A stretch of DNA of 64,000 bases, from sequence record LC765218.1; one strand, given 5' to 3'. This DNA is from Pseudomonas phage BRkr. This document shows, in pieces, positions 2,091 through 59,227 of this stretch. Both the position numbers and the translations under genes were made by a program. The notes under the pieces were generated by a model. It saw only the letters and a list, made by a program, of their open reading frames with translations. It made no database searches and was not told the DNA's origin. The stretch's first letter is position 1, and each line of letters opens with the position of its first letter.

Positions 2091-3002
2091 TAGATAATAC
2101 ATGGCATTACTAGCAGCGTTGACTGAACTGTTACCAGAACCACCGAAACAATACAACCGTTTTCCATCGGATACAATACTCGAATTGAATACGATATTAG
2201 CTATATTCTTGAACAATACCCATTTATTTTCATCGGGTAAATATTCGTAGATATTTTTATTCGCGTTGTTATTGATTAAGGGTGCACCAGGCATCAGGAA
2301 TATCCGACCATCCATGGTGAAGCCACTACCAACCCAAGTAGTAATTGGGAAATTACTTAGCTGTACCCACGTATTTGTGGATAAAGTATATTCCCAGAAA
2401 TCATTACGATTGCTAACGCCACCGATTAAATAGAATTTACCATTTAGATAAACACTAGCAGACGATGTTCTAGCTGGCGGACGAAGTGTTGGTTGGGTTA
2501 CAGTTTCCCAAGTGTCGGTAGCGATATTATATTTCATTAACACGTCGTTTGACGGCGTGCCACCGTAAGTATAAATAAAGCCCGACTCATAGAACATATG
2601 GAAATCGTAACGAGCCACAGGTGGGGATTTCAAAACCAGTTTTTCTTTTGTTAATGGATCAATCCTAACAAAAGTGCTATTAACAGCATTACCTGGAAAT
2701 GTAGCGCCGCCGAGGTGGTACAGATATGTTCCATCGTTAACGATACCAGAGAAATATACAGACGACGGAACAGTACTGAAGTTTTGATCATACACACCAG
2801 TGGCAAGATCATACGTCATTAACGTCGAAGTGGATACACCATTTGTTCCACCTTGCGTGCCGCCACCAGCAATATATACTTTACCATTGAGTAGGGTTGC
2901 AGATGCACCTACCCTAGTAACAGGCATGTTAGGACCCTGTACAGGGATTCCTTGCCATCCAAGATTAGTTCTGACTAATGTAGCGAGTAAAGACTCGAAC
3001 AT
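2085..3002 (-). CDS. Kelch-repeat beta-propeller protein (6 blades)
   Basis: Six repeats with the Kelch signature hydrophobic-GG ... Y ... W (LNGKVYIAGG, GTYLYHLGG, GFIYTYGG, NGKFYLIGG, DGRIFLMPG, GKRLYCFGG); start chosen at ATG 3002 (MFESLL) with AGGTG RBS, 16 nt after the upstream stop. Confidence 0.65.
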   Translation of the reverse strand: MFESLLATLVRTNLGWQGIPVQGPNMPVTRVGASATLLNGKVYIAGGGTQGGTNGVSTSTLMTYDLATGVYDQNFSTVPSSVYFSGIVNDGTYLYHLGGATFPGNAVNSTFVRIDPLTKEKLVLKSPPVARYDFHMFYESGFIYTYGGTPSNDVLMKYNIATDTWETVTQPTLRPPARTSSASVYLNGKFYLIGGVSNRNDFWEYTLSTNTWVQLSNFPITTWVGSGFTMDGRIFLMPGAPLINNNANKNIYEYLPDENKWVLFKNIANIVFNSSIVSDGKRLYCFGGSGNSSVNAASNAMYYLK

Positions 3003-3018
3003 ATAAACACCTACGCCC

Positions 3019-3831
3019 TTACGGCGCCGCCATGATAGTACGAATATGGTGTCGGTTACCTTCAGGGTCATTGAAGTTCCGGGATACCTTCCGCCACTTC
3101 TTCAGTTGCTCATCATAGAGATCGTTCGCTTCAGACCATTCGTAAACTTTGTCACGGAATACACCAAGCTCTTGACCGCCAGATAACTGAGCTTCACCCA
3201 TATTGATGTAAAGTTCATTATAACAGTAGGCTTTAACAGCATATTCAACTAGTTTAGAGAATACAGGGATAGCCTGAGGACGAATATTAAGTAACTCGTC
3301 ATCATTACCCAAGCGACACGATAAATACGCGGCATGTGAAGGCAAGTAAATAAATCTAACCATTACAGTGTTATGGTTAATCAAGTTAATGTATGCAGTC
3401 TGTGCAACAGGTAGTCTTCGCGCAGAGTCTAATACTTTACGTGATTCAGCACCAATAGTCGATTCATTATAGTGCATTGCATATCCAGAGTTCTGATAAC
3501 CTAGGATACCGAAGTGAATACTAAATACCTGGACGATGGGACGCTGTTGGGTGTATTCATCCGGGATATAGTAAATAACAGTGTACGGATCGACATATTC
3601 AGACTTAACAGGAAAGTCCAGTGGAATATAAGTTTTAGTTCCACCGATCAAGTTCATGTCTGCAAAGACACGTGGTTCTAATACCGCCTCTCGAATTCTA
3701 GTTTCAAGAGAAATGACTTCACCGCAAATAGCTGCATTAGATGCAGCTTCTTGTCCAATGAAAACAGACTCTAGAATCTGACGGGGAATTCGGAAAGGTA
3801 AATCTCGAAGTGCATATTGAATAGCATTCAT
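3019..3831 (-). CDS. hypothetical protein
   Basis: 270-aa ORF; no motif recognised. Confidence 0.55.
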
Positions 3832-3941
3832 GTTTAAACGCCCCTAGGAAGCTCACCAGCGAACGAACACCCATGGAGATAATACCCAGGTGGGGTATCA
3901 TATACAACGGGGGTTCTGTGACGATTTTAAAAGATTTCAAA

Positions 3942-3951
3942 TCTATATCAT
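3942..3951 (+). promoter_or_regulatory. early-promoter-like motif TCTATATCAT
   Basis: atttcaaaTCTATATCATag, identical 20-mer to 13954-13973; 30 nt upstream of ATG 3981. Confidence 0.45.
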
Positions 3952-3980
3952 AGCTCTGAGTGATTTCCGGAATACTAACT

Positions 3981-4373
3981 ATGATTCCTCAAAGACAAGT
4001 TCAACTTCATGCCTTCGAGTTGGCTGGAGTCATAAAGGCCATTACTCAACCACCCTTCATGGCTTTAGTTAAATCTAAAGCAATTGAATCGGTTGACATG
4101 GATACTACTGACTTCTCAGGACTCCTGGTAAAAGCTAAGGAACAGTTAATAGATGATTTCATCCAGAACGCAATAAATTCGTTTCAATGTTGTTTTGTAA
4201 TGGGTTACGCACCATATCGTAACACACAGGCCGAACTGGAATGGATGGCATTTCATAATGAGGCGCGTTCATTACTTTACGACACTCTCAATCTTCCAGT
4301 GGAAGCTTCCGGGATGCATGTTGGTTACAGACGTATTGGTTCTGTTATCTACTTAGCAATACCTATCAATTAA
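3981..4373 (+). CDS. hypothetical protein
   Basis: ORF 3960-4373 trimmed to ATG 3981, downstream of promoter-like motif at 3942-3951. Confidence 0.45.
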   Translation: MIPQRQVQLHAFELAGVIKAITQPPFMALVKSKAIESVDMDTTDFSGLLVKAKEQLIDDFIQNAINSFQCCFVMGYAPYRNTQAELEWMAFHNEARSLLYDTLNLPVEASGMHVGYRRIGSVIYLAIPIN

Positions 4374-4389
4374 TAAATGGAGCAATGCA

Positions 4390-5409
4390 ATGTCGTCCAA
4401 ACGGTTTGTAGTGCTTGAGATTAACCCACAGGTAGATGTCCTGTATACATATCTCGAACACTTTACCAAAAGCAATCCGCATTTGGGTCTACCGCGCCCG
4501 ACTCGTAACACCGCGATTCAACTGGTGTTCCTTACAGTCAAAGAAATCTTGACTAGTCGAAGTGCATTCGAAACAGAGATTGACTATGAGGTACATAAAG
4601 CAGGTGCCCTATTTAATTCTCCTCCAGGCAAATTAGATGAAAAACAACTGGAGGTTTATAAGATCTTTGCTAGTGATGTTATCTGGGAAGGCGTTACGAT
4701 TGAAATCGATAATCAATTGGAACACCACATTGATCGACGCACCTATACCGAATGGAAACCAGTCTGCATTGGTAACCTTATTGGGCTTGCTGAAGGTGAA
4801 GATCATAGAATCCAAGAATACTATCGCCTGACCGATCAGCATAATGATGACAGCCATGCCGAGATTGCATTGAACTGCACTTCTCTAGTGTCGTATCTGC
4901 ATGGTGAATTCATGCGTACATTTGGAGCCGTAATGCGAGATCCAAATACGTTGACCCGTGCAATTGCAATGATGGGTAAACATCGTACACCTGAACGAGT
5001 TCAGAAAGTAATTGATTTCCTGAATAATCCCAACAGGGCCATGGCAGCAGTGTTCTTGGATACACTGACAACTATGTATCCAATGATAACCCTTGATCCC
5101 ATTTGTCCTCAAGTGAACGATGATTTGTTCGCACTTGTTGGTATTGCTAACATGGAGGAATTCAAACAAAATTACGTGCGTAAAGTTATCACGGCTTTCG
5201 GCCTGAGTTACTTCTCGTCGTATGTTAAACGGGATAAGAAATACACGCTTGAATACAGTTCTAGCCACATTCTCGCCATATACGAAATGAAAGGGATCAG
5301 TCGTACGGAGAAAGAAATGATGGAGCTTGTTGCATCGTTCCTTCGTAACGATTATCTTCCCCCAGAACAACGGGCTATTGCAGAACGTTGGTATTTGGAA
5401 AATAACTAA
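4390..5409 (+). CDS. hypothetical protein
   Basis: 339 aa, GGAG RBS 7 nt upstream; ends at hairpin 5416-5431. Confidence 0.6.
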   Translation: MSSKRFVVLEINPQVDVLYTYLEHFTKSNPHLGLPRPTRNTAIQLVFLTVKEILTSRSAFETEIDYEVHKAGALFNSPPGKLDEKQLEVYKIFASDVIWEGVTIEIDNQLEHHIDRRTYTEWKPVCIGNLIGLAEGEDHRIQEYYRLTDQHNDDSHAEIALNCTSLVSYLHGEFMRTFGAVMRDPNTLTRAIAMMGKHRTPERVQKVIDFLNNPNRAMAAVFLDTLTTMYPMITLDPICPQVNDDLFALVGIANMEEFKQNYVRKVITAFGLSYFSSYVKRDKKYTLEYSSSHILAIYEMKGISRTEKEMMELVASFLRNDYLPPEQRAIAERWYLENN

Positions 5410-32494: not shown

Positions 32495-34468
32495 ATGAAT
32501 CAGTATAAAGCACGTGATCTTCTCAATATGAGTTACGATGAACTCTGGGCGATTCCAAGTGAATGGCATGAGATCATCTTTGATGACGGGGAGAAACTCT
32601 ATGCAAAAGATCGGATCACCAAGCTGTCGGTTCTGCTCTGGTATCCACTGAAAGCTTTCCCTGATGCCCCGGTTCTGAAAGATTACCATCTGGCATCTAC
32701 TCGGGTTACCTCTAAATCTCTTGTGAAATACCTTAACAAAGTTATTTGGGGTATTCATGCATGGAGTGGTGAACAGATCGATCCAGAGGTTTTGGCTAAA
32801 CTGGCTATTGAAGGAAAGAATTGGCTTTATAATGAAACCACGACTCGACTGAGTGCTTACATTGCAACCCTGTCGATCTTTGACATTATGGAAGTGTACA
32901 ATCACCCGGCAGTTAGAAAGGCTAACCAAGATGTACAACCTACTACGTACGGGATTGAAAACATTTCTTACGGGATGATCAAAGAAGCATTCAACGACGA
33001 AACACAGTTCCGTGGTAACAGCATCATTGAGGGCCTGCGCTCGGGTACGCAGAAAATGGAGCAATTGCTTCAGGCATACGGACCACGTGGTTTCCCGACA
33101 GACATTAACTCTGATATTTTCAGTGAGCCGTGTACCACTGGTTACATTGATGGTATTTGGGGTTTGTATGAAAACATGATCGAATCCCGATCGGGTACCA
33201 AAGCTCTGTTGTATAACAAAGAGCTACTGCGTGTAACCGAGTATTTCAACCGGAAGTCTCAGTTGATTGCTCAGTATGTACAGAACCTACACACTGGTGA
33301 TTGTAATGGTCACTTGATCGACTTCCCTGTAATGCAGGGTACGTTGAAAGCTCTTCGTGGCAAGTACTATCTGAACGAACAGACAGGTCAACTGGACTGG
33401 CTGAAAGGGGATGAGAAACATCTTATCGGTAAAAAGATTAAGATGCGTTCTATTTTGGGATGTGTGCATCCGGATCCTCAGGGTGTATGTTCGCGGTGTT
33501 ATGGGCGACTAAGTTTCTCTATTCCAAAAGGAACTGTCATTGGTCAGGTATCGGCTGTATCCATGGGTGACAAAATCACTTCTGCGGTATTGTCGACAAA
33601 ACACACTGATGCAACCTCGGCTGTAGAACAGTATCAGATTGGTGGCGTCGAAGCTAAGTACCTGCGAACTGGATCTGCGGCTGAAACTCTTTATCTGAAG
33701 AAAGAACTCTCGGGTAAAGGTTTCCGCTTGATGATCGGTCGTAACGAAGCCCAGAACCTGGCTGATATTCTGATGATCGATGACCTTAGTGCATATCCAG
33801 CACCGAGTGCTTCTGAACTGACCCGTATTGGTTTGGTACGGACGGTTGATGGAGTAGACGAAGGCGATGTATTGACGGTGTCGCTGTATAACCGTCGAGC
33901 TAGTCTATCGACTGAAATGCTGCAACATATCAAACGTGTACGTTGGGAACTTGACGCTCGTGATAATATCGTGATCGATATGGCCGGGTTTGACTTTGCC
34001 CTGCCGTTCCTGACGTTGCCTAATAAGCACGTAAACATGTACGAAGTGATGAAGCGTATTCAGTCATTCCTGCACTCTGGTAGTGATACTGAAGGGTCTA
34101 AACTGAGCTCAGATAAGGTAGGTTTTACTAGCAAGACTTATCTTAAGAACTACAAAGACCCAGTTGATGCTTTGGCAGCCACTGTGTCGCTGTTGAATGA
34201 GAAGTTCTCTTTGAATGCCGTTCACTGTGAGGTTCTGGTTTATGCTATGATGGTGCGCTCTATCGCTGAACGCGATTATCGTCTGCCTAAGCCGGGTATT
34301 ACGGGTCAGTTTGAAAAATACAACAAACTGATGATGTCCCGTTCTCTTGCTGGTGCGATGTCGTTTGAGAAGCAACATGAGCCGTTGAACAATCCTGGCA
34401 GTTTCCTCTACACACTGAGGAATGACCATCCCTACGATCTTGCGGTCATGGGAGGTAAGCTGCTCTAA
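32495..34468 (+). CDS. multisubunit RNA polymerase beta-prime, C-terminal fragment
   Basis: GCVHPDPQGVCSRCYGRLSF...GTVIGQVSAVSMGDKITSAVLSTKH resembles the E. coli beta-prime Zn-II/trigger-loop region GVCAHCYGRDLARG...[31 protein letters not shown] RBS; immediately follows the beta part. Confidence 0.7.
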   Translation: MNQYKARDLLNMSYDELWAIPSEWHEIIFDDGEKLYAKDRITKLSVLLWYPLKAFPDAPVLKDYHLASTRVTSKSLVKYLNKVIWGIHAWSGEQIDPEVLAKLAIEGKNWLYNETTTRLSAYIATLSIFDIMEVYNHPAVRKANQDVQPTTYGIENISYGMIKEAFNDETQFRGNSIIEGLRSGTQKMEQLLQAYGPRGFPTDINSDIFSEPCTTGYIDGIWGLYENMIESRSGTKALLYNKELLRVTEYFNRKSQLIAQYVQNLHTGDCNGHLIDFPVMQGTLKALRGKYYLNEQTGQLDWLKGDEKHLIGKKIKMRSILGCVHPDPQGVCSRCYGRLSFSIPKGTVIGQVSAVSMGDKITSAVLSTKHTDATSAVEQYQIGGVEAKYLRTGSAAETLYLKKELSGKGFRLMIGRNEAQNLADILMIDDLSAYPAPSASELTRIGLVRTVDGVDEGDVLTVSLYNRRASLSTEMLQHIKRVRWELDARDNIVIDMAGFDFALPFLTLPNKHVNMYEVMKRIQSFLHSGSDTEGSKLSSDKVGFTSKTYLKNYKDPVDALAATVSLLNEKFSLNAVHCEVLVYAMMVRSIAERDYRLPKPGITGQFEKYNKLMMSRSLAGAMSFEKQHEPLNNPGSFLYTLRNDHPYDLAVMGGKLL

Positions 34469-34483
34469 GATGGAGGTCGAGGT

Positions 34484-34524
34484 AGGGAGGGCTTTGGCTC
34501 TCCCTTTCCCCTCGTTAATTTTTT
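34484..34524 (+). terminator. imperfect hairpin + T-run after the RNAP beta-prime C gene
   Basis: agggagggc-tttg-gctctccct then ttcccctcgttaattttttATG. Confidence 0.5.
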
Positions 34525-36059
34525 ATGCTACCGATACTCAAGGCTGAGCGCTATACGCATGGTGTCCGACTATCTGGGTATACTCGGGAAACGTTCGCTA
34601 AGATGCAGGGGTTTCTTGAAGGGCTTTCTTTGAAAGAACCTAAGAAAATCCCTGGTAATCGAATCATCATGGAACTCAAGAAAAAGTACTATGGTTGTTT
34701 CGAAGATCTATCAGAGACTTATATCCACCGAAATTCACTAGAAGACCTGATCGGTTATCTGGAGAACAAAGGTATCCCAAGAGAACGAGTCGAGATTGAG
34801 GATATCCCTGTCCCTAAAGCAGCAACTGCTGTTTACGAAATGTACGAGAAATACGTACTCCGGGATTATCAGGAAATCATCCGTGAAGATATTTTGCGTG
34901 ATTGGTTACATTCTGCACGGGTAGACTTGCAAACGGGAAAGGGAAAACCCTCACGAGCCTAGCGTCCTTGGCTTCGATGGGGGTAAGATGTGTTGTGATG
35001 GTTCCTCCCAAGTATTTTGGTATTTGGATTGAGGCTCTTCAGAACACTTACAAGGACATTGCCCAGAGATACATTACCATCTCGGGTTCCGCAGAACTCC
35101 AAAAACTAATAGATCGCGGCGTCGAAAACGATCTTGAAGGGATTGACGTTATTGTAATCTCTTCTACTACCTACCGGGCATATCTAGATAACTTTGAGAA
35201 GTATGGTAACCGACTCCATGAGCTCGGATACAATGTACCTCCACCCCGGTTCCACGAAGCAATACAAGCAGGACTGCAAATTAACGACGAGATTCAAGAA
35301 GATCCAGGACTAACCTTCCGTATCGATATTTACTCTAACATTAATAAGCAGATCTATTTGTCGGCTACTCCCTACACAGGGAACGCCTACGTGACGAAGA
35401 TGATTGACAAGATGTTGCCAGCAGAGACCATGTGTCGCCTGCCCAACTACGATGTCTACATCAACTGCATGGGGCTACTCTACACTGAACCAAAGATCAA
35501 ACCGAAGGATTATCTTACACCGTTTAAGAATACGTATAACCATGCGCGTTACGAAACGGTAATGATGAAAGATCCTAAACGGATGGATGACTATTTCAGG
35601 ATGGTCGGTCGTATTGCTGAGGGCGTGTATGTGAAAGATCGGTTACCTGGTCAGAAACTACTCCTCCTTTGTGCAACGGTCGCCTTTATTGAAAAACTGG
35701 TTAAATATCTGAAGACTAAGTTCCCTGACCTTGTGGTTAACGGACATGTCTCAGGTTGCAGTTATGAACAGTTACTTAAGAACGACATTACGGTGTCCAC
35801 TATTAAGTCATCTGGTACAGGTGTAGACATCCCTAATCTTCGTGAGGTAGTATTGTTACAAGCTACCGATTCCAAGAAAGATAACATTCAAATTCTGGGT
35901 CGTCTCCGTAAACTGAAAGACTTCCAAGATGTGGTACCTAGGTTGACCTACCTAGTGTGTGAAAACATACCGCACCACGTGAGATATGCTCGGAATAAAA
36001 GTGAGCATTTCGCCGGTAAAACTCTTTCAATGGTACTCAGACGGATAGCCATGCACTAA
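34525..36059 (+). CDS. SF2 (UvsW/DEAD-like) helicase, interrupted by a -1 frame change inside Walker A (ORFs 34525-34962 and 34902-36059)
   Basis: Frame 1 gives ...LRDYQEIIREDILRDWLHSARVDLQTGKGK then stops; the -1 frame continues TLTSLASLA..., restoring a textbook motif I (TGKGKT). Downstream motifs: SAT (YLSATPYTG), QxxGRxxR (IQILGRLRK). The second ORF has no ATG/RBS of its own (TTG artefact start). The junction is at G_GGA_AAA_C (34941-34948). Confidence 0.6.
34941..34948 (+). other. frame-change site inside the helicase gene: slippery-type heptamer G_GGA_AAA in an A4 run
   Basis: 0-frame codons aag gga aaa ccc; a -1 shift (or a fifth A) continues as acc ctc acg = TLT and restores Walker A. 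Confidence 0.55.
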
Positions 36060-36063
36060 TAAC

Positions 36064-36091
36064 AGCCCACCTTCGGGTGGGCTTTATACCG
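36064..36091 (+). terminator. hairpin + CTTTATACCG element
   Basis: agcccacc-ttcg-ggtgggct then ttataccg. Confidence 0.55.
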
Positions 36092-36106
36092 TTAAGAGGA
36101 ATAGAA

Positions 36107-36379
36107 ATGTCACCTGTGATCCTACTTATTGTTTCACCGATATTAACCGTCGTGATGTATGTATTGGAACTGAAGCTCCGTGAGGAGTACAGAACGGCGC
36201 ACTATAAACACTTGTTACGTTTAGCCGGACAGAACATCAAACCGAAGTTAATAAAGCAGTCTATAGAGTATTCTGAGATTGCATTGACCCGATTGATCCA
36301 TACGTTCGTAAAGAAATGTTACTTGGTATTAGCTTACTTTACGCTGACCATGTTCGTAATCGCTGCATCCCACATCTAA
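36107..36379 (+). CDS. small membrane protein 1 of 6 (TM at N- and C-terminus)
   Basis: ORF 36077-36379 trimmed to ATG 36107 with AAGAGGA RBS; hydrophobic N- and C-terminal stretches. Confidence 0.5.
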   Translation: MSPVILLIVSPILTVVMYVLELKLREEYRTAHYKHLLRLAGQNIKPKLIKQSIEYSEIALTRLIHTFVKKCYLVLAYFTLTMFVIAASHI

Positions 36380-36389
36380 GGAAATACAA

Positions 36390-36692
36390 ATGAAAACATC
36401 TCCCTCTGCTCTCCCTTTCCCCAACCTAATGTTCCTCCTTCTGGTAATTGTTATAGCAATTCCCGTTGTGGCATACATCTATCTACCTTATGCTGCACTG
36501 GCTATTTCAACAGGTGTACTAGCTGCATGTACCTGTGTTTTAGGTATCGGTAATGCACTAGTTGATCCAAATGCCTACGATACACCTAAACACTGGAGAG
36601 AGTATCGTTATTATCTAATCACTGGATTTGGGTTCTTCACTGTTGCTATGTTCGCAGCAGCTAATCTCAAATATGCATTTAAGTTCATTTAA
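36390..36692 (+). CDS. small membrane protein 2 of 6 (about 3 TM)
   Basis: 100 aa; AAGGAAA RBS; MFLLLVIVIAIPVVAYIYL..., GVLAACTCVLGIG..., ITGFGFFTVAMFAAA. Confidence 0.55.
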   Translation: MKTSPSALPFPNLMFLLLVIVIAIPVVAYIYLPYAALAISTGVLAACTCVLGIGNALVDPNAYDTPKHWREYRYYLITGFGFFTVAMFAAANLKYAFKFI

Positions 36693-36695
36693 AGC

Positions 36696-36704
36696 CTATA
36701 TTAC
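36696..36704 (+). promoter_or_regulatory. early-promoter-like motif CTATATTAC
   Basis: aaagcCTATATTACaactgtg (the same acaactgtg tail as at 25321), inside the small-membrane-protein array, 36 nt upstream of ATG 36740. Confidence 0.5.
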
Positions 36705-36739
36705 AACTGTGAATATACACCCACATAAAGGACAATGTA

Positions 36740-36949
36740 ATGGCTATTATCACCAATGTATTTGCTTTCGCTATCATCACTCTGTTCATCGTCTTTTTCC
36801 TGAAACAGGGACTTGCGGTCATGGGTGTCAAAACGAACCACCTGCCGATTAAACTGGCTAAAGCTTTCAATGCATCTGGTCCTTTGGCAGCAATCCTTCT
36901 TGCCGTATACTTGATCATGGCAACCTTTTATAACATCTTTCTGAGTTGA
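36740..36949 (+). CDS. small membrane protein 3 of 6 (2 TM)
   Basis: 69 aa; AAAGGA RBS; preceded by CTATATTAC motif at 36696-36704. Confidence 0.5.
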   Translation: MAIITNVFAFAIITLFIVFFLKQGLAVMGVKTNHLPIKLAKAFNASGPLAAILLAVYLIMATFYNIFLS

Positions 36950-36953
36950 TACC

Positions 36954-37142
36954 ATGGGATGGATTGTACTGATACTCACCTTCTTCGCTTCTCTTACGGT
37001 TGGAGGTGTAATGACTTTCTATGGCTTGGTAGCTAGCAGTAAAACCTTTTCAGATAGAATCTCTATGGTTCTATTTGGTGTAGTTATTATTGCTATCACC
37101 GGCTATAGTGGATATCATTTATTCGACATGCTTCCAAAATAG
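36954..37142 (+). CDS. small membrane protein 4 of 6 (2 TM)
   Basis: 62 aa; weak RBS; hydrophobic throughout. Confidence 0.45.
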   Translation: MGWIVLILTFFASLTVGGVMTFYGLVASSKTFSDRISMVLFGVVIIAITGYSGYHLFDMLPK

Positions 37143-37150
37143 GAGTTAAC

Positions 37151-37411
37151 ATGGATTTGATGTTTACTAACCCAATAGCGTTTATTTACGGGACACTTAG
37201 CCTTCCTGGACTATTGATCATGACTGGCTATGCTGTATCGTGGTTGTTCGTAATGGGTGTATGCAAGTGGCTTCCTAATTGGAAGTACCTCTGCATGTTC
37301 CTCTGCGTCAGTTGGGCAATTAGCTTTGCGATTTATCTAGTAATGATCATTACGGCCCTGGTTAGCGTGTATACCCCTCTCCAGTTACCGCCGTGGACGC
37401 TCATGAACTAA
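37151..37411 (+). CDS. small membrane protein 5 of 6 (about 3 TM)
   Basis: 86 aa; AGGAG RBS. Confidence 0.55.
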   Translation: MDLMFTNPIAFIYGTLSLPGLLIMTGYAVSWLFVMGVCKWLPNWKYLCMFLCVSWAISFAIYLVMIITALVSVYTPLQLPPWTLMN

Positions 37412-37424
37412 CAAGGAGTTAATC

Positions 37425-37664
37425 ATGGAAACCATCATGCTGATCTGGTGGATCTCTATTTCGATTATCGCTGGGTCCCTGTTCGTAGCAAAACTGGTAA
37501 AAGATAACGATGATGTTCGTCGAACTCGTTTACCAAAGAAAGATATCATCATGCTCGACCGCATTAATATGATTTGCACTGCTCTCATATGGGGAGCTGC
37601 TATCGTAGCGCTGATCACTCTCTTCTTGGGTGGTCTTTTCATGATGATTGAAGCACAAGTGTAA
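37425..37664 (+). CDS. small membrane protein 6 of 6 (2 TM)
   Basis: 79 aa; AAGGAG RBS; followed by bidirectional terminator. Confidence 0.55.
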   Translation: METIMLIWWISISIIAGSLFVAKLVKDNDDVRRTRLPKKDIIMLDRINMICTALIWGAAIVALITLFLGGLFMMIEAQV

Positions 37665-51273: not shown

Positions 51274-54189
51274 TTAGTTATTCAGTACTTCGTGTTTAAG
51301 GAAGTTGAATTGAACGTCGTCTTCTACAGTTAACTCTTGGTTAGCAAGAACAACAAGCTTCTTACGAATCGCGAGGCGAACAGCATCATCTTCAACTGTA
51401 AGAATGGCGTAGTTATTAGTGCCACCCAAACCGAATACCTCAAGTGCCTGTACCCCGTCACCAGACGTCGCTTCAAGTTGAGCAACTGTATCAGACATCG
51501 ATACAGTCTTACGACTGATGTATTCATTAAGTACAGACTTACCGTTAGCCATAAGGCTAGGTCGAATTGTAGTATTGGTATATTCAGCTGGTTTCAGATA
51601 GAAACTAAGAGTGAATGCTTGATCGACGGAGATGGTAGCTTTCTGACCTTCACGTACGGTAACAGTAGTATCACCATAAGTGGTAGTCGGATAGAGATAC
51701 ATCTCACACATTTCAAGTAACTGTGCATCGAGGATACTGATGTCATTCTCAAGCCATGTAACGAATTCCATCGGAATTTCGACTTTGTAGTCAAGTGCCG
51801 ATTTTTCATTGGCAAAGTAGAATAGTCCATCAACCATCATTAAAGTAATTTCACGTAGACGCTTACGCGGTGCAACCAAAATAGGTTTACCGTTTGAGTC
51901 TAACATTACATCGCCTTTCTGGTGCTTGCGAACCTGATTACCTTGTGCATCCAATACCGGATCACCTTTACGATGAAGTATCTCATAATCGAGAGTACCA
52001 TCAGGTTTAATCGTTACAATGATGTTACCTGCTTCATCGCGTTTATATTCGTTTTCCTCATAGAACCACATTACATCATGTTCCCAGTGCTGATAAGACT
52101 CATCACCAAGTACAGTACGACTACGTCGCCACATTTTGGTCATGTCATAACCAAGTGTTGTAACTAGACGTTCACGGTTGACAACCATGAATTGTTGTGG
52201 CAATAGGTGGGCTTGAACCATTTCATCGATCTGGTTAGGTTGATAACCAGGTGTACTCGTATTAACAACAAGGATAGTGATATCAAACATGTTATTTAGA
52301 GTACTCGCGAAATTGTTTTGCACCTCGGAGAACATCGACATGTTAGTCGTGTAGAGCTCGTTCTTGGAATTGATGTCATGATTAGTTTTGATATCAAAAG
52401 TAAATACGCGCTCACCGTCTTCGATACCAATGAACTTACCATTAACAGAAGCCCAGCGTACTTCACCAGCTGGCTGATAGCCAATTTGAAGTACAACTTG
52501 TTCATCAGCTAGTTTCTTGAACTGCTCACCAGATTCTAAACGAACTGTAATTCGATAACCTTCATCCGTTTTAACTATATCAAAGACATCGATAGCAGCT
52601 TGTAAATTAGCTGTGTCGTTCTCACCAACAAAAATCTTTTCGGTGATTGTTGGATTGTCTAAATAGTAGGGACGAACCTCAAAATTCTCACGCGATGCAT
52701 CTAGTACGTTATGGAAAGGAGAATACACGTAACGGCCATTGTTCATCTCACGTGCAATCTGTTCGGCAGTGCTGCCTTTTAGACGAGCAATCTCAGCATC
52801 AGCAACGGTGTTAACACGACCATTATTGAACGTGTAGAGCATACTAGGTTTGATCGTTAATCGATCACCATTGTCCGCTACATGTATAGAGCCCGCCAAA
52901 GACTCCATATCGACTTTAAGTTGCGACATGGCTACACCAGCACCAGAAATAACATCAAGCGACCTCGGAGCTCCTAGACGCCTTGAAGCGAGGAACTGTC
53001 TATTCGTAATGTTATCGATATTGGATACGAGTGTATAACCACGCCGATTAACAGCGTCAGTAATTTGAACGTTAGTAATAGGTACTTGGTTTGCACCGAG
53101 TGTATTATTAATAACCTGATTACGGAGTACGTTAAAATCAACCGAATTCGCACCTCCTTCTACTCGACCACGTGCCAGAGATTGAATGAGGTTAAACGTT
53201 GTCAATGGAGACACATACGAGCTATCGTCATCAATAGAGTTCAGATAGAACTTAAACTGGTTTGCTTTATAAGCACCTAGATCGCGATCCATCTTTCCTT
53301 GGGTAGTATAGATATCGATACGGATATCACCCTGTGCCATTCGTGTGTTTGTATAGATAGTTGGAATACTCACTTGGAGTTTATTACCAATAACTTTAAA
53401 CACAACGGTCAGTTCCATTGGGTCATAGACTAAAGCCGAGTGAGTCGTTTTAAGTTCCACCCAATTATCATCTTCAGTACGGCTGATGTACGCCCGCGCA
53501 TAGAAGAACTGATCGGTGAATGTATACGATTCTTGGAAAAGACTAGATGGGTTAAGAGATTCGGTATGTGTCTTTACTGCGAACTGATAGACCGGGATGC
53601 TAAGAGAAATAACCTTACGTCGATCAATGACGAGCATAGACCATGGTACAATGTTCGTCGATAGGGTTTCCACAGGTGACTTTTTATCGAGGACATATTC
53701 GATAGTAATACCACCGTGACGCATAACCCGAATTTCAATTGGGTACTGCATCGTGAATTTAATACCAGCTGCATCAAATTCCGTTAAGCGCGGTATAACT
53801 AGTTTCTTGATACCTGTATCTCCGACGGCCACTGCTTTAGCAATAACTTCATCGTAGGCAATCAAGAAATTGAAGGTTGTTCTAGCAGGAGAAGCAAAGC
53901 GTCCAATATAGTCATCATCTGACATGTGTTTATAGAGCTCTTCACTACCCAGCGAAAGACGTGGATACAGCTGACGTCCCAATGCCTCCATTTCACCAAT
54001 TGCCATCGCGGTTTCCATGGAACCGATCTCAAGCGAGAATACAAAAGGGATAGATGCATCTGGAATATCAGCAATGACGGCTCCATTACTAGAGCCGTTC
54101 ATTTGTGTATCCAGTTCATTAAGAGCGATGGTTTGCATCAACGCTGGATTACGTCGAGCACTATACATCCGTTCTTTAAACTGACTCAT
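51274..54189 (-). CDS. large hypothetical protein (971 aa; possibly virion structural)
   Basis: Long uninterrupted ORF, translationally coupled to the upstream minus gene (10-nt spacer with GGAAA); no Walker A or polymerase motifs. Confidence 0.6.
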   Translation of the reverse strand: MSQFKERMYSARRNPALMQTIALNELDTQMNGSSNGAVIADIPDASIPFVFSLEIGSMETAMAIGEMEALGRQLYPRLSLGSEELYKHMSDDDYIGRFASPARTTFNFLIAYDEVIAKAVAVGDTGIKKLVIPRLTEFDAAGIKFTMQYPIEIRVMRHGGITIEYVLDKKSPVETLSTNIVPWSMLVIDRRKVISLSIPVYQFAVKTHTESLNPSSLFQESYTFTDQFFYARAYISRTEDDNWVELKTTHSALVYDPMELTVVFKVIGNKLQVSIPTIYTNTRMAQGDIRIDIYTTQGKMDRDLGAYKANQFKFYLNSIDDDSSYVSPLTTFNLIQSLARGRVEGGANSVDFNVLRNQVINNTLGANQVPITNVQITDAVNRRGYTLVSNIDNITNRQFLASRRLGAPRSLDVISGAGVAMSQLKVDMESLAGSIHVADNGDRLTIKPSMLYTFNNGRVNTVADAEIARLKGSTAEQIAREMNNGRYVYSPFHNVLDASRENFEVRPYYLDNPTITEKIFVGENDTANLQAAIDVFDIVKTDEGYRITVRLESGEQFKKLADEQVVLQIGYQPAGEVRWASVNGKFIGIEDGERVFTFDIKTNHDINSKNELYTTNMSMFSEVQNNFASTLNNMFDITILVVNTSTPGYQPNQIDEMVQAHLLPQQFMVVNRERLVTTLGYDMTKMWRRSRTVLGDESYQHWEHDVMWFYEENEYKRDEAGNIIVTIKPDGTLDYEILHRKGDPVLDAQGNQVRKHQKGDVMLDSNGKPILVAPRKRLREITLMMVDGLFYFANEKSALDYKVEIPMEFVTWLENDISILDAQLLEMCEMYLYPTTTYGDTTVTVREGQKATISVDQAFTLSFYLKPAEYTNTTIRPSLMANGKSVLNEYISRKTVSMSDTVAQLEATSGDGVQALEVFGLGGTNNYAILTVEDDAVRLAIRKKLVVLANQELTVEDDVQFNFLKHEVLNN

Positions 54190-54199
54190 TAAAATTTCC

Positions 54200-55243
54200 T
54201 CAACTTGGATTGTATCCGCGTGTTAGGTTACCGCCGGCCATTTGGTCGTAGATAGACTTAGGTACGTGCCATTCTAATTCCATATTCGCACTATTAATGT
54301 ACGGGTAGGCCTGGAAGTTAAACCATTTCTTTTCATGCTGTCGTAACTTTTGTGTCAAACGCCCACGGTTGTTATCTCGCATCAGCGGGTTAAATGTTTC
54401 AACAAGATCATTAAACTCATAGATCAAGATATGATCGTAAATTGTCATTCCCATGCAACGGAAACTAAAGTTGAGTTGATCACTTGCAGTTTGGAACGGT
54501 GTCTCTGCTCCATCACCAGTAAAGTTAATAATTTGACCAGTTGGAGCATTCATTGGTAAAGCAGCACCACATGCAGCAATACGGGTTACAAATGTTTTAG
54601 TGGAGTCCATTACCAGGCGATAGATACGCGTGTTGGCATCGTATTCATTAAGCATCAATAAATCGGGATAGGGTAGGATACGACCTTCTCTATTAAGTCC
54701 CATATAGACTAGCCAGATCTTGAACATCCATGTTATAGGATCTCCAGCAATATTGCGGAATGTCGCCTGTAAATCGTAGGTGTTGTACTGATATGGCACG
54801 TCGTCCACATAGGACATTACGTCACGGTAAACACCGGGTGTTGTGGTACCGAGATTAATAGTAAAATCTTCCCAACCAGTAAGACTAATCAAGTTGTTAC
54901 TAAGAAGGGGGATAAACGGGTTAAGAGGATCTACTCCACCGCACCATGCTGTGCCACCTTCACTATGTGCTCTCGGATCCAAATATGCCCTAACCATACG
55001 CTCGATACTCTGTGGGTTAGGATTCAGGATCATGGACAGTCGCCTGTCCACCATGCAGTTATCTTCAGCCAGGTTCAGTAATGGACGGGTAAAGAAAGTA
55101 TAACCATGGTTTTCTGTATTTAACGAAATCGCATTGTTACGACCTGTGATGTTCAGGCCTTTGAATGAATCTTCAATGGAACGATCACGCGGCGACATCC
55201 CAATGTTTTGTGTAATTTGCGTTAGATAATCACTTAATGCCAT
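54200..55243 (-). CDS. hypothetical protein
   Basis: 347 aa; first gene of a leftward two-gene operon. Confidence 0.55.
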   Translation of the reverse strand: MALSDYLTQITQNIGMSPRDRSIEDSFKGLNITGRNNAISLNTENHGYTFFTRPLLNLAEDNCMVDRRLSMILNPNPQSIERMVRAYLDPRAHSEGGTAWCGGVDPLNPFIPLLSNNLISLTGWEDFTINLGTTTPGVYRDVMSYVDDVPYQYNTYDLQATFRNIAGDPITWMFKIWLVYMGLNREGRILPYPDLLMLNEYDANTRIYRLVMDSTKTFVTRIAACGAALPMNAPTGQIINFTGDGAETPFQTASDQLNFSFRCMGMTIYDHILIYEFNDLVETFNPLMRDNNRGRLTQKLRQHEKKWFNFQAYPYINSANMELEWHVPKSIYDQMAGGNLTRGYNPS

Positions 55244-55245
55244 TT

Positions 55246-55260
55246 TTCAAATCTCTGTGA
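55246..55260 (+). promoter_or_regulatory. possible promoter variant ttcaaatctctgtga
   Basis: Resembles the ttcaaatctatatcat flank of the 3934 and 13954 motifs; 20 nt upstream of ATG 55281 in a divergent intergenic region. Confidence 0.25.
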
Positions 55261-55280
55261 ACAAATGAAGGAAGAGAACG

Positions 55281-56465
55281 ATGCCACTACCAATCGTAGC
55301 TAGTGCTATGGCTGGCGCAGCAGGCGCTGCTGCCGGTAGCCAAGCTTTTAAAGGTCTTATGACCACAGTCCTTAATGCGACCAAAAATAGCATGGAGATT
55401 AACTCCCTTGCAGATTTGACTCGCCCATGTCGAGTTGAACCACTTGCTATTATTGATAGCGTTCTGGTCGACCAACCTTACATGCAAGATATCCTTAAAA
55501 TGGCACTTAGCCAATTCGCCGGATATTATCTGCAAGCTGTTAATATGGTTCTTGGTGTAGGCAAAATCGATACTCTCAAAGTATTCGATAGCCTGAACCC
55601 GTACCGTTCTATTGGTGCTGATGTTAGTGGCGCTGTCTTCTCGAAAGAAAATTACATGAACGGTTTCCCGTCCCTCGAAGCGTTCAACCAAAAGATCCGT
55701 CCTGAACTGATTGCTGAATACTCTCAAGAAGCGTATGAGCAATCAAAAGACGATGATCGTAAGAAGGGTGATAGGGAAAAGAAAGAAGCTGCACCACGGA
55801 TGTCTTCGGGTGATACTCAGAAAGTATACGAAACCGAAAACCTCGCTGTGGGTAAACTACTGAACGTTGAAATTACCGATGGTGATGCTAAGGCTAAACT
55901 GCCTGTACTCATCCGTCTCATTCCGGCAGCAGTTCCGTCGCAGACTCTTACTCATATCTTTAGTGCCGGCGGACGTGATACTTGGAGCCATCGTCTGTTC
56001 CTGGTTAAAACTGGACAGATTCGTTTCTGGCGCGACTTCGTTCTTGGACAGGATATGATTGATGCACACTTTGCAGCTCTGATTTCCGATAAGTCCGGCG
56101 TTTACAAAGAGATCACTGATCGTCGTCGTAATAACCTGAGCAAGTCTGTTCAGACTGGTCGTGTTTCTATGGCAGATGCTTCTAACATTGCTGTCGTTTC
56201 GTCTACCACGATGAAAACAACTGCCAATGCTCTTTACGGTAAACTAGAAGATCCGAATACCCGTCGTAAGATCTTCGATAATAGCTATCTACTCATGTTG
56301 ATCGTTGTTGATGAACGTTGGCAGCGTGTTACTATTTATCACCGTGGTGTGGATATTGCATCTAGCTTCCGCATCGATGAAGTGAAGATGGCTGAGAAAT
56401 CTAAAGGTCAAGACATCACTGAAATCTTTAAGATGTTCAGCAAACAGATGCAAACCAACATTTAA
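55281..56465 (+). CDS. hypothetical protein
   Basis: 394 aa; GAAGGAAG RBS. Confidence 0.55.
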   Translation: MPLPIVASAMAGAAGAAAGSQAFKGLMTTVLNATKNSMEINSLADLTRPCRVEPLAIIDSVLVDQPYMQDILKMALSQFAGYYLQAVNMVLGVGKIDTLKVFDSLNPYRSIGADVSGAVFSKENYMNGFPSLEAFNQKIRPELIAEYSQEAYEQSKDDDRKKGDREKKEAAPRMSSGDTQKVYETENLAVGKLLNVEITDGDAKAKLPVLIRLIPAAVPSQTLTHIFSAGGRDTWSHRLFLVKTGQIRFWRDFVLGQDMIDAHFAALISDKSGVYKEITDRRRNNLSKSVQTGRVSMADASNIAVVSSTTMKTTANALYGKLEDPNTRRKIFDNSYLLMLIVVDERWQRVTIYHRGVDIASSFRIDEVKMAEKSKGQDITEIFKMFSKQMQTNI

Positions 56466-56480
56466 CCAAGGACATGACCA

Positions 56481-57374
56481 ATGAGTATTCTTAACTATGT
56501 CCAGCAGCTTGCACCTGTAATGGAGCGCCGTCAACTGCTGAACGTTCTGGATCAACTCCAGACCGAATATGACGATACCCTTGCCCCGATTGTTTCTGAT
56601 GTTCGGGAAGCTTTCCAAGGTATCCCGCTGAAGTCTAACCTCGCCAAACGAATGGAAAACGTTCTTCGTCGTGGTATTACTTTTAACCAGCCGGCTATCG
56701 ATCTGATGCTGGGTTCTCTCGATAACATCCGTGGTAACTTCGAAGTTATTCGTAAAGAAATCCGTAGTCTATTCTCGATCCAATTCACTAATACAAACCT
56801 GACATTCGATCGAGCTAACATGCTCAAGTTCATCGAAGGTCTGGCTTTCTATATTCGATTTGGCCGTAAATATCTACTGTTCCTTGTTGCCCAAGAAGCT
56901 GCCCTACATGGGAAGGCTACCCGCGCTGCATGGACGTCGGCTGAGTCCGATTGGATCGATACCAACATGGAACAGTTCGCTGCACTGTATCCGGCGATGA
57001 CTCTTCAACCTCAAGCACTGAAGCAAAAGCTTAATGCTGCTTCTAATGCTACAGTTGACGAATCGACTTTCCAAGTTGCACAGCAGAATCTTGGACTTAC
57101 CAAAACTGATCCTCTGGGTATGGCTGGTTTCTCTCCTCGTCAGAATCCCTTCTTGATCATCGGTAAGCTGATTGCAGAGATGCAGGCTGAGCGATATAAC
57201 GTGGCACAAGAAGAGTACTATGGTCTTCAACTTCGGTTGGAAGAACTACGTGCACTTCTAGCTAAAGAACCGACCAGCCCTGTTCTGCAAAAACAGATCG
57301 AAGCTTACGAGCGTCGTATCTCCGCGTATGAATACGAGATCAATAAGATCGAAGAACGCGCTGGCGTACAATAA
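56481..57374 (+). CDS. hypothetical protein
   Basis: 297 aa; AAGGA RBS. Confidence 0.55.
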   Translation: MSILNYVQQLAPVMERRQLLNVLDQLQTEYDDTLAPIVSDVREAFQGIPLKSNLAKRMENVLRRGITFNQPAIDLMLGSLDNIRGNFEVIRKEIRSLFSIQFTNTNLTFDRANMLKFIEGLAFYIRFGRKYLLFLVAQEAALHGKATRAAWTSAESDWIDTNMEQFAALYPAMTLQPQALKQKLNAASNATVDESTFQVAQQNLGLTKTDPLGMAGFSPRQNPFLIIGKLIAEMQAERYNVAQEEYYGLQLRLEELRALLAKEPTSPVLQKQIEAYERRISAYEYEINKIEERAGVQ

Positions 57375-57384
57375 GGAGTTGACA

Positions 57385-57918
57385 ATGCCTACTAATGCAG
57401 TCAAACCTTTCGATGCTAATCGTGAGTATTCTGGCGGTCAAGCTAAAGCTCAACAACGTTTCACTATGCGCCAAGGTGATCCGCGTGTTGTTGAACTTAT
57501 GGTTGAATATACCAACTTTCCTCGCCGCGCTGTGTATTGGGAATTCCGTAAACGTGTAATTGATCTCGCTCTTATTAAATTCTCGGGTAACTATAACTGG
57601 TTTATCCGTCAAGATAATAATGCCATGATTGCTGATCACAATTACGCATTCCTGCAAGATACTGTACGGTTTATTGCCACAGGTAAACGTCGAGTGAATA
57701 TCCATGCATGGCCAATGCTACTTACAGCAGAACCGCCAGCGGGTGTTCAACTAATCGAAGATCGTCGGGATATCGCTGAACTTTTCTTAAGCTACAATCT
57801 TTCTCCGAACGAGAACGACATGCTTCAGGAATGGCTCAAGAAGAAAGGTGGCTTCGATGATCTCATGTACACAATGAACATGTTGTTTGGTAGTGTACCT
57901 GAAAAAATCAATAAGTAA
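57385..57918 (+). CDS. hypothetical protein
   Basis: ORF 57328-57918 trimmed to ATG 57385 with AAGGAG RBS. Confidence 0.5.
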   Translation: MPTNAVKPFDANREYSGGQAKAQQRFTMRQGDPRVVELMVEYTNFPRRAVYWEFRKRVIDLALIKFSGNYNWFIRQDNNAMIADHNYAFLQDTVRFIATGKRRVNIHAWPMLLTAEPPAGVQLIEDRRDIAELFLSYNLSPNENDMLQEWLKKKGGFDDLMYTMNMLFGSVPEKINK

Positions 57919-57928
57919 GGAGGGGTCC

Positions 57929-59227
57929 ATGGTTGACTCAGTTAACCATTCCCAACCTAACGCAGTCGACGGGGTAACACCCGTCGATCTGTCCGTCTCG
58001 ATTGAAGATGAATTCAACGAGTTCGATGCTTGTGCTGAAAAACTTGATAAGTTAATGATGGGGATGGAAACCATAGAGCGACTCGATACATTTATCCAGT
58101 CTAACTATGACACAGCCAGTCCTGAGATGTTAGCTTATGCTGTTGAGAAATTCGGTCTCACTGACGTTGTCTCTACAGAAGACATTAGTGATTCGAGCAT
58201 GCAGGTTTGGGAACGTACTAAGTTAGAAATAAAGAGAGCGAATAGTGACCTATATGGCTACGCTAAAGTACTGATGGCTGGTATAGATCGTACTGTAGAA
58301 CGAATCACTATGCTTTATGAGATGGCTTCGAACTTAAATGGAACTAAACCATTTAAATCGGAGATTGAACTGAGAAAGGCAAAAAAGTTTAATATCAATG
58401 GCGAGTTTAAACCATTGGATATTCGACCTGTTCTGGAACAAACACAAAACACCATTGATTTCTATGATAAGGTGTTCATGCCTTATCTCACTGCGATCGA
58501 CAAAACATTCAATAATCTTACCCTTGATCAAGAGTGGACAGATGACTCCACTATTCGGTTTGAAATATTCAATGCGAAACGTTGGATGAAGGGGGCTATT
58601 GAAGTCGACCAAGACGACAGGTTTAGAGTCAATGCTACTTTGTTCCGTTCTGAGTTAACTCAGGGTAATAAGGCTCTTTATTTCTCTGGTCCGAGTGAAA
58701 CTAAGACTGAGCAACTTAAAGATTGGCAGTTTATGGTAAACTCCATTCGGGACTTCCGTTTTAAGTATTACACTGTACCAGAACAGAAACCATTAAATGA
58801 GCAAGATAACAAAGTTGAAGTGTCGAATATAAACGCTGTTCGTCAGCGTTTAGGAGTACTACTTGGGTTAGCTAAACGCTTACAATCGCGCAAAGGCTAT
58901 GACCAAAAGATCTCTGCTCAACTTCGTAAACTTGAACAATCCGCTGAAAAGATTAGAGTAAAAGCTGGACAACTTCGCCAAAGTCAAGGTCGTAAAAAAC
59001 CTGGCGCTGAGGAAAGAGATGAAGCCCGGCCATCCGTATCTAATGTCGTTAACGATCTAACAATGATCCTTAATAATGTCATGCGGATGATCATTGACTA
59101 TAACAACACTCTCGCTGGTATGATTCGCTTAATTGCAGGTTTGGCTATGGTAGCCGACCTTGAACTTAAGGCGTATCAGGCTCCTCTTCGCAAACCTACG
59201 GAAGAAGAACAGAAGCGTTTGGGTTGA
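57929..59227 (+). CDS. hypothetical protein, possible distant member of the paralogous family
   Basis: ORF 57887-59227 trimmed to ATG 57929 with AAGGAGGGG RBS; acidic N-terminal segment. Confidence 0.5.
   Translation: MVDSVNHSQPNAVDGVTPVDLSVSIEDEFNEFDACAEKLDKLMMGMETIERLDTFIQSNYDTASPEMLAYAVEKFGLTDVVSTEDISDSSMQVWERTKLEIKRANSDLYGYAKVLMAGIDRTVERITMLYEMASNLNGTKPFKSEIELRKAKKFNINGEFKPLDIRPVLEQTQNTIDFYDKVFMPYLTAIDKTFNNLTLDQEWTDDSTIRFEIFNAKRWMKGAIEVDQDDRFRVNATLFRSELTQGNKALYFSGPSETKTEQLKDWQFMVNSIRDFRFKYYTVPEQKPLNEQDNKVEVSNINAVRQRLGVLLGLAKRLQSRKGYDQKISAQLRKLEQSAEKIRVKAGQLRQSQGRKKPGAEERDEARPSVSNVVNDLTMILNNVMRMIIDYNNTLAGMIRLIAGLAMVADLELKAYQAPLRKPTEEEQKRLG

Follow-up and report, generated by a model that had tools for sequence, protein, structure and literature searches.

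A probable programmed −1 ribosomal frameshift inside the P-loop of a core XPB-like helicase gene of nucleus-forming jumbo phages

In the Escherichia coli dnaX gene (tau/gamma), an X_XXA_AAG-type heptamer is combined with a stimulatory hairpin about 6 nt downstream and an upstream Shine-Dalgarno stimulator; ribosomes that stay in frame 0 make the full-length protein and shifted ribosomes make the short gamma. Elements of the IS3 family (IS911, IS150) use a −1 shift at an A_AAG-type heptamer, together with a downstream structure, to produce an OrfAB fusion that carries the catalytic domain, in a layout of two open reading frames (ORFs) that is ancestral and family-wide and in which the short product is a regulator. 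Having only tRNA-Lys(UUU) makes A_AAG slippery in E. coli. The G/GT site of phage lambda is not known to require a downstream structure. The slippery sequence of lambda G/GT is G_GGA_AAG, where about 4% of ribosomes shift (PMC3296357), and this heptamer has been rated highly shift-prone in E. coli (PMC5009743). Frameshifting may also offset a mutation, as in herpes simplex thymidine kinase mutants with indels in a G-run, in which low-level frameshifting restores enough enzyme for viability (PMC5009743). Here we analyse a 64,000-nt stretch of Pseudomonas phage BRkr (sequence record LC765218.1; hereafter the window), in which the gene for a superfamily 2 (SF2) helicase is broken by a single base inside its P-loop (Walker A motif, motif I), and we argue from its sequence that programmed −1 ribosomal frameshifting very probably expresses the full-length helicase.

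The gene lies on the plus strand and is divided between two frames. ORF1, in frame 0 (34525-34962), begins with an ATG, encodes 145 aa and runs from an N-terminal alpha/beta domain through a Q-motif helix (RDYQ) and strand beta1 into the P-loop, of which it holds the first half (QTGKGK) before PSRA and the stop; its C terminus reads ...RVDLQTGKGKPSRA. Between 34902 and its stop at 36059 the −1 frame is open; it reads ...LANGKGKTLTSLASLASMGVRC..., and its helicase part (34941-36059) supplies the GKT of motif I, motif II (DEIQ), motif III (SAT) and motif VI (QILGRLRK). This layout bears out an earlier inspection of the letters made without database searches (the sequence-only reading), which had frame 0 ending in PSRA and a stop and the helicase remainder in the −1 frame. 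Since the last −1-frame stop 5' of the P-loop (TGA, 34899-34901) closes that frame on one side and the frame-0 stop (TAG, 34960-34962) closes ORF1 on the other, any shift must fall within 34902-34959. The frame-0 codons at the P-loop are ACG GGA AAG GGA AAA CCC, and the overlap holds two in-phase heptamers, G_GGA_AAG at 34935-34941 and, 6 nt 3' of it, G_GGA_AAA at 34941-34947. A slip at either one gives an identical 511-aa protein with a perfect motif I (QTGKGKT), because GGGAAAGGGAAA encodes Gly-Lys-Gly-Lys in both frames. The sequence-only reading had chosen G_GGA_AAA, which is real and, by codon reading, in the correct phase, a −1 slip there yielding ...DLQTGKGKTLTSL...; the conserved and best-placed heptamer is nevertheless G_GGA_AAG, which we propose as the main shift site. 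It is in phase in all eight frameshifted lineages described below, whereas G_GGA_AAA occurs only in the window's own lineage and abuts the downstream hairpin. Lacking both a spacer and conservation, G_GGA_AAA is unlikely to be the main site, although it may contribute to shifting. GGGAAAG alone is not rare in the window (9 copies against 5.7 expected), so its significance rests on position, phase and conservation across lineages rather than on the heptamer by itself.

Comparison with relatives identified the lesion. The window phage is a PS119XW-like Pseudomonas jumbo phage (Pawinskivirus, nucleus-forming Chimalliviridae), and over a 1.8-kb region it is 99.8-99.9% identical to PS119XW, PA1C, phiHQ, phiLBG22 and HHBS36_1, 89% identical to HPP-Temi and 78% identical to PhiPA3. 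Orthologues in HPP-Temi (511 aa; 97% aa identity) and PhiPA3 (510 aa; 85%) are single uninterrupted ORFs, the comparison that the sequence-only reading had recommended. Their P-loop codons are ACA GGT AAA GGA AAG ACC and ACA GGA AAA GGG AAA ACG, respectively. Relative to these in-frame genes, the missing base is the third base of the first P-loop Gly codon (ACN GGN AAA GGN to ACG GG- AAA GGN) and not, as the suggested A4/A5 error would have it, an A of the A4 run; the last 370 codons of the helicase are thereby in the −1 frame. The same deletion is present in the five close genomes, which are distinct GenBank entries, and each of these differs from the window by single-nucleotide polymorphisms (SNPs) elsewhere in the 2.8 kb compared (at position 34647, for example, the window has A where the five others have G). 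The close genomes are thus independent, each with its own SNPs, and the deletion is not one assembly error that was copied between records. Slip site and hairpin are invariant among the six PS119XW-like genomes.

We propose that the fixed 1-nt deletion in the first Walker A Gly codon is offset during translation. The P-site tRNA-Gly, paired with GGA, and the A-site tRNA-Lys, paired with AAG, would move back together by one base at 34935-34941 and re-pair with GGG and AAA; a predicted hairpin that starts 5-6 nt downstream (34947-34984) would promote this slip. Shifted ribosomes would make the full-length helicase of 511 aa (about 58 kDa) with a wild-type motif I, and ribosomes that do not shift would stop at the TAG at 34960 and release the 145-aa N-terminal protein. 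That ribosomes shift here, how efficiently they do so, and any role of the short product are matters that we infer from the features of the locus. Read from the bases, the predicted arrangement of X_XXA_AAG heptamer, 5-6-nt spacer, hairpin and nearby frame-0 stop is that of a canonical bacterial −1 cassette. The correct annotation is a single recoded coding sequence (CDS), join(34525..34941,34941..36059), marked ribosomal_slippage, in which base 34941 is read twice; five of the six GenBank records that we examined give two unrelated or 'hypothetical' CDSs, and the sixth is unannotated.

Each of the described systems resembles part of this arrangement. The helicase gene shares with lambda G/GT the identical G_GGA_AAG with Gly-Lys in both frames (PMC3296357, PMC5009743), as well as a −1 shift that would extend a short product into a fusion and a frame-0 stop shortly downstream. 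Lambda, however, needs both products in a fixed ratio and its arrangement is conserved across most tailed phages, whereas the helicase gene has a hairpin, splits an enzyme inside its catalytic P-loop and is uninterrupted in close relatives. The likeness to dnaX extends to the heptamer type, the hairpin spacing, the kind of gene (a replication/repair-type ATPase) and the origin of both a longer and a shorter product in a single gene, but the helicase gene needs the shift for its full-length product and an upstream Shine-Dalgarno stimulator is not demonstrable in it. As in IS3 orfA-orfAB, frame 0 specifies a short N-terminal protein and the shift would yield the catalytic fusion (ORF1 and ORF1-ORF2 here); the helicase layout differs in being scattered among in-frame relatives and in having its junction inside a catalytic motif. 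With compensatory frameshifting of the herpes simplex thymidine kinase type, the locus has in common a genomic indel that would be offset in translation at a shift-prone run. Those cases are recent, unstimulated and unconserved, whereas the helicase site has a hairpin kept across divergent lineages, and it is the maintenance of this dedicated hairpin that moves the site from tolerated to programmed. The mechanism is known in kind; what is new is the shift site in the catalytic P-loop, the alternation of the cassette with intact genes and, in two lineages, its co-occurrence with an intein. In full-text literature searches, no earlier account of frameshifting turned up for this gene, for PhiKZ-like phages or for nucleus-forming jumbo phages.

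The fused product has the features of a complete enzyme. The gene is the Chimalliviridae core gene cg17, an XPB/RAD25-like SF2 helicase with orthologues PhiKZ gp075, PhiPA3 gp068 and RAY gp250, and the fusion unites motifs Q (RDYQ), I (QTGKGKT), II (DEIQ), III (SAT) and VI (QILGRLRK). Matches to the Pfam families ResIII, Helicase_C and DEAD all fall under the curated cut-offs; the product matches PHROG 16 (DNA helicase) at 2e-43 and, weakly, RAD25 2fwr at E=0.007. AlphaFold2 confidently models the fusion (pLDDT 90.8) as a complete XPB-like helicase, in which residues 1-95 form an N-terminal alpha/beta domain and residues 135-141 the P-loop; the model also has the Q-motif helix, strand beta1 and two RecA-like domains. 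Compared with the PDB by Foldseek, it is matched best by XPB/Ssl2 of human and yeast TFIIH and by archaeal XPB (E about 1e-14 to 1e-12), and as modelled the product looks functional as an XPB-like helicase. Chimalliviruses encode a separate DnaB-like replicative helicase, so cg17 is not the replicative one, and the sequence-only reading's 'essential replication helicase' does not hold. The RAY orthologue localises within the phage nucleus (PMC10299810). When PhiKZ075 was knocked down with an antisense oligonucleotide (ASO), the numbers of plaques and colonies did not change but ChmA accumulation fell (PMC12571901), so essentiality cannot be assumed; the result fits a protein that is needed in small amounts.

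The frame break recurs outside the window's clade. A protein search with the fused sequence gave about 200 homologues, most of them single ORFs of about 510 aa and a few of them C-terminal fragments of about 350 aa; following up these fragments, together with a profile search with the short ORF1 proteins, revealed seven further frameshifted lineages, all metagenomic (loci L028/L029, L030, L031, L033, L034, L035 and L036/L037). Each has an ORF1 of 128-145 aa that ends just past QTGK, with the −1 frame encoding the rest of the helicase. At one and the same codon, CAR ACG GGA AAG G is found in all eight lineages, with G_GGA_AAG in phase. None of 21 in-frame loci has G_GGA_AAR there; their first Gly codon is GGT or GGC in 19 of 21, and the preceding Thr codon is ACG in only 3. 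The in-frame allele at L038 (ACG GGT AAA G) is one base from the frameshifted form. The frameshifted lineages are 57-79% identical to one another over the C-terminal 350 residues and have closer relatives in frame: HPP-Temi for the window lineage (97%), and P0033 for L031 (94%), P0095 for L036 (92%) and P0100 for L035 (85%) among the homologous proteins. Because the nearest relatives of each lineage are in-frame, the frameshifted state is polyphyletic, through repeated gain, repeated reversion or both. Strict DNA pattern scanning of IMG/VR, JGI metagenomes and GTDB genomes found nothing new and recovered only the contig of L031, and a relaxed scan gave chance matches apart from the contig of L033; it was the protein search with the ORF1 profile alone that brought in additional lineages. 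Three pieces of the helicase N-terminal domain (P0125, P0126 and P0127; 60-63% identity), entered as partial proteins of 'Klebsiella pneumoniae' from contigs of 259-377 bp, are probably jumbo-phage reads in bacterial assemblies.

In the window, the predicted stimulatory hairpin (34947-34984; about −19 kcal/mol) has its 5' arm at 34947-34959 and its 3' arm at 34970-34984, with the frame-0 TAG in its apical part. The spacer that separates it from G_GGA_AAG (34942-34946) is 5 nt long, or 6 nt to the first G-C pair; a stem-loop at this distance is what the sequence-only reading had advised looking for, although the hairpin directly abuts the heptamer which that reading preferred. The helix is predicted by folding to begin at +6/+7 after the heptamer in 8/8 frameshifted lineages (spacer 5-6 nt). 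Seven lineages have a compact hairpin of 34-44 nt (−12 to −31 kcal/mol), and L036 has a longer, long-range structure closed by CCCUG/UAGGG. The first pairs are C-G, C-G (U-A in L028) and C-G, and the inner pairs vary by lineage yet stay complementary (U-G/U-A/A-U; C-G/A-U/U-A/G-U; A-U/U-A/C-G and others). The G-rich 3' arm lies in differing codon phases and encodes SMG, ELG, RKG, LRV or LGQ. For six ungapped sequences, RNAalifold returned 14 pairs, 7 of them with compensatory double changes.

We compared stability over a fixed stretch (+6..+50) between the 8 frameshifted and 21 in-frame loci, using 1000 synonymous-codon resamples of each locus's own protein. Mean folding energy was −18.4 kcal/mol in frameshifted loci and −11.1 kcal/mol in in-frame loci (Mann-Whitney p=0.005), and the mean z against synonymous resamples was −2.19 versus 0.01 (Mann-Whitney p=0.001); combined by Fisher's method, the resampling tests gave p=1.5e-7 for frameshifted and p=0.39 for in-frame loci. 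GC content was alike (0.55 versus 0.56, the latter for the first 17 in-frame controls). Codon choice is biased towards a hairpin only in the frameshifted lineages. Sister alleles in frame are without the hairpin (HPP-Temi, −4.9 kcal/mol over +6..+50; L038, −6.6 kcal/mol over +6..+46). The hairpin of L035 (−31 kcal/mol; dinucleotide-shuffle z=−5.6) is made of the first codons of an intein, and the homologous in-frame intein allele L025 has no such hairpin (z=+0.7). A covariance model built from six hairpins scored frameshifted loci at 61-72 bits and in-frame loci at no more than 31 bits but missed two held-out intein-context hairpins (19-21 bits); because it failed to recognise these, it is mostly a sequence model and adds little. 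Rfam gave no match to a known frameshift element or any other family.

Several observations count against programmed frameshifting. The window hairpin is unremarkable when compared with dinucleotide shuffles (z −0.06 to −0.57). Synonymous-codon resampling with in-frame controls replaced that test, and the structural signal accordingly rests on the resampling and on the comparison with in-frame relatives, not on shuffles. Taken singly, two lineages fall short of significance over the short stretch: L028 has z −0.4 to −0.9, and L036 has only its long-range structure (z=−2.4 over 99 nt). The in-frame intein allele L041 has a comparable hairpin at +6..+50 after the P-loop Lys codon (−17 kcal/mol, z=−3.2), which could mean that the allele reverted recently, that the hairpin arose by chance or that it serves some other role. 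Upstream of the heptamer, no specific Shine-Dalgarno-like stimulator could be shown, any such signal being inseparable from coding constraint: GG-rich Arg-Val codons (CGG GTA, AGG GTG) lie about 12-15 nt before the heptamer and are also found in in-frame relatives. Finally, the PhiKZ075 knock-down may mean that loss or very low expression of the helicase is tolerated in the laboratory. A phage-encoded helper tRNA was also considered and rejected, as no tRNA genes were found in the window.

Separate translation of two polypeptides is quite improbable, although GenBank annotators call two CDSs here. ORF2 would be made by re-initiation or coupling at ATG 34977, which the annotators chose as its start, and the hairpin, whose 3' arm covers this ATG, would regulate coupling rather than frameshifting; several other lineages have a TTG or ATG near the equivalent place. 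The sequence-only reading had denied the second frame any ATG or ribosome-binding site of its own, which is correct in part: the −1 frame does contain start candidates, TTG 34902 and ATG 34977, but neither is conserved in other lineages, TTG 34902 has no Shine-Dalgarno sequence and ATG 34977 is situated 3' of the P-loop. Candidates elsewhere vary in position and type, the first in L033 being the Met of VVMVAPKYFG. An ORF2 started past the slip site would lack the Walker A GK(T/S) and ORF1 lacks everything after it; a P-loop split mid-way is not expected to bind ATP, and motifs II, III and VI are nonetheless strongly selected. Coupling also leaves the in-phase conservation of the heptamer in 8/8 lineages unexplained. 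An independent start at TTG 34902, which would give ORF2 its own P-loop (ANGKGKT), was considered and rejected, both for want of a Shine-Dalgarno sequence and because in L030, L031 and L035 a stop interrupts the −1 frame 4-6 codons ahead of GKGK and no start codon intervenes, so that a P-loop-containing product cannot come from separate initiation in those lineages. Translation across the junction would have a diagnostic product in the peptide TLTSLASLASMGVR, whose −1-frame codons precede ATG 34977.

Correction could instead occur in the mRNA, if a phage or host RNA polymerase slipped and inserted one nucleotide in the GGGAAAGGGAAAA tract. The break does lie within short purine runs, and the phage's multisubunit RNA polymerases are uncharacterised for slippage. 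Productive transcriptional slippage generally needs about 7-10 or more A or T (reviewed in PMC5009743), whereas the longest runs here are G3, A3, G3 and A4, and an in-phase X_XXA_AAG heptamer with a hairpin 5-6 nt downstream is the signature of ribosomal −1 frameshifting. We regard slippage by the polymerase as quite improbable.

The patterns of selection bear on whether the gene is decaying, as the sequence-only reading had allowed. Each frameshifted lineage has one lesion only, with none elsewhere in about 1.5 kb, and dN/dS against the nearest in-frame sister is 0.02-0.05 in the downstream part and 0.05-0.08 in the upstream part: purifying selection acts on both halves of the gene. Nine residues that are invariant across 34 homologues (T137, G138, G140, K141, D255, E256, Q456, G459 and R460) are present in the fused window product. 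For a pseudogene, the deletion would have inactivated a helicase that is dispensable where the phages were isolated, and the heptamer would be a by-product of base loss from GGN AAA GGN; the loss of one base from ACG GGN AAA G does automatically give ACGGGAAAG, knock-down of PhiKZ075 spared plaque and colony counts, and the six SNPs in the gene within the PS119XW clade split into 3 synonymous and 3 non-synonymous. Such decay is very improbable, in that it would have to leave eight divergent lineages with exactly one lesion each at the same codon, in a family-wide core gene with all catalytic motifs intact and dN/dS of 0.02-0.05, and with a hairpin kept at the canonical distance by compensatory changes and by codon choice unique to the frameshifted lineages. 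The notion that the true ORF is intact and that a short homopolymer run was misread or misassembled, which the sequence-only reading had also entertained and which the position of the break in a G3A3G3A4 tract might favour, has a negligible chance of being right, since the deletion is identical in the window and in five independently deposited genomes from different submitters and, where stated, countries, each with its own SNPs, and since seven unrelated metagenome assemblies, with other flanking sequence, show this frame break too; the runs, moreover, are just 3-4 nt long. Of the options set out by the sequence-only reading, it is thus the programmed −1 frameshift that is supported, by a real deletion, its recurrence in eight lineages, purifying selection and the downstream hairpin.

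The P-loop is also the site of inteins. Among 120 listed homologous proteins, 39 exceed 650 aa (650-880 aa), many with LAGLIDADG or Hom_end domains, and reading the DNA of long homologues showed in each case that an intein, located exactly after GKGK, accounts for the additional length. The first intein residue differs, being Ala in L025, L035 and L041, Ser in L036 and Cys in L040, and some are mini-inteins. Intein-bearing loci are L025 and L026 (ORF 4-2601), L035 (825-2912), L036 and L037 (about 2913-4638), L040 and L041; long, intein-type homologues include the proteins P0013, P0030 and P0034. Intein and −1 frameshift are combined in two lineages, L035 and L036/L037. The idea that the frameshift shields the gene from the homing endonuclease of the intein is not supported: 2/8 frameshifted lineages carry an intein, which is similar to the proportion among homologues overall (39 of the 120 listed).

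The helicase gene lies directly downstream of the gene for the RNA polymerase beta subunit, an order shared by PhiPA3, HPP-Temi, PA1C and metagenomic loci; the cg15-cg17 block is given in the supplement of PMC10299810. In the window, the upstream neighbour is a 657-aa ORF (32495-34468) that related GenBank records call the RNA polymerase beta subunit. XPB/Ssl2/RAD25, which the helicase resembles in structure, is the promoter-opening translocase of TFIIH, and the helicase gene sits in a conserved core block beside a polymerase gene; the enzyme may act in phage transcription and not in replication, a possibility that merits study. The PhiPA3 beta-subunit gene 065 (record 53811-58420; L002 1-869) is annotated only as a 4.6-kb 'fragment' misc_feature, where the window and HPP-Temi have the 657-aa ORF, which suggests that gene 065 is interrupted by an intron, a homing-endonuclease insertion or a frameshift. 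Directly 3' of the helicase are six small tandem ORFs of 62-100 aa (window 36077-37664; 36077-36379, 36390-36692, 36740-36949, 36954-37142, 37151-37411 and 37425-37664), most or all of them strongly hydrophobic and membrane-protein-like, and several within-clade SNPs cluster at 36384-36405. PA1C has single-base deletions in two intergenic homopolymer runs, at 34519 (the T-run before ATG 34525) and 36072, which are the sole length differences among the close genomes in the 2.8 kb compared; its annotators set the start of ORF1 55 nt farther upstream.

The locus would add a well-supported programmed −1 frameshift to a short list in non-structural genes of bacteriophages. It also offers a natural experiment in the evolution of recoding. 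Because Gly-Lys-Gly-Lys is coded GGN AAR GGN AAR, the gain or loss of one base is enough to switch the gene between an in-frame form and a form with a lambda-type shift site that would give the same protein; close phages (97% and 94% protein identity) differ only in whether they have the in-frame gene or the frameshift cassette, and in eight lineages the shared heptamer is followed, at the same spacing, by hairpins that differ from one another, that of one lineage being made from intein-coding sequence. For the phages, frameshifting at this site would imply either that little helicase is required or that it is required alongside a free N-terminal domain. More tentatively, the frameshifted state may be a recurrently evolving, selectively maintained alternative mode of expressing a core helicase rather than a one-off rescued mutation, a possibility that we put forward with considerable doubt. 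If it is, the boundary between the two states would have been crossed at least eight times, or there would have been many reversions, each lineage building or losing its own hairpin. The pay-off would then be a fixed low dose of an XPB-like translocase together with an excess of free N-terminal domain protein or, less likely, a P-loop target shielded against the homing endonuclease of an intein that inserts at this exact site.

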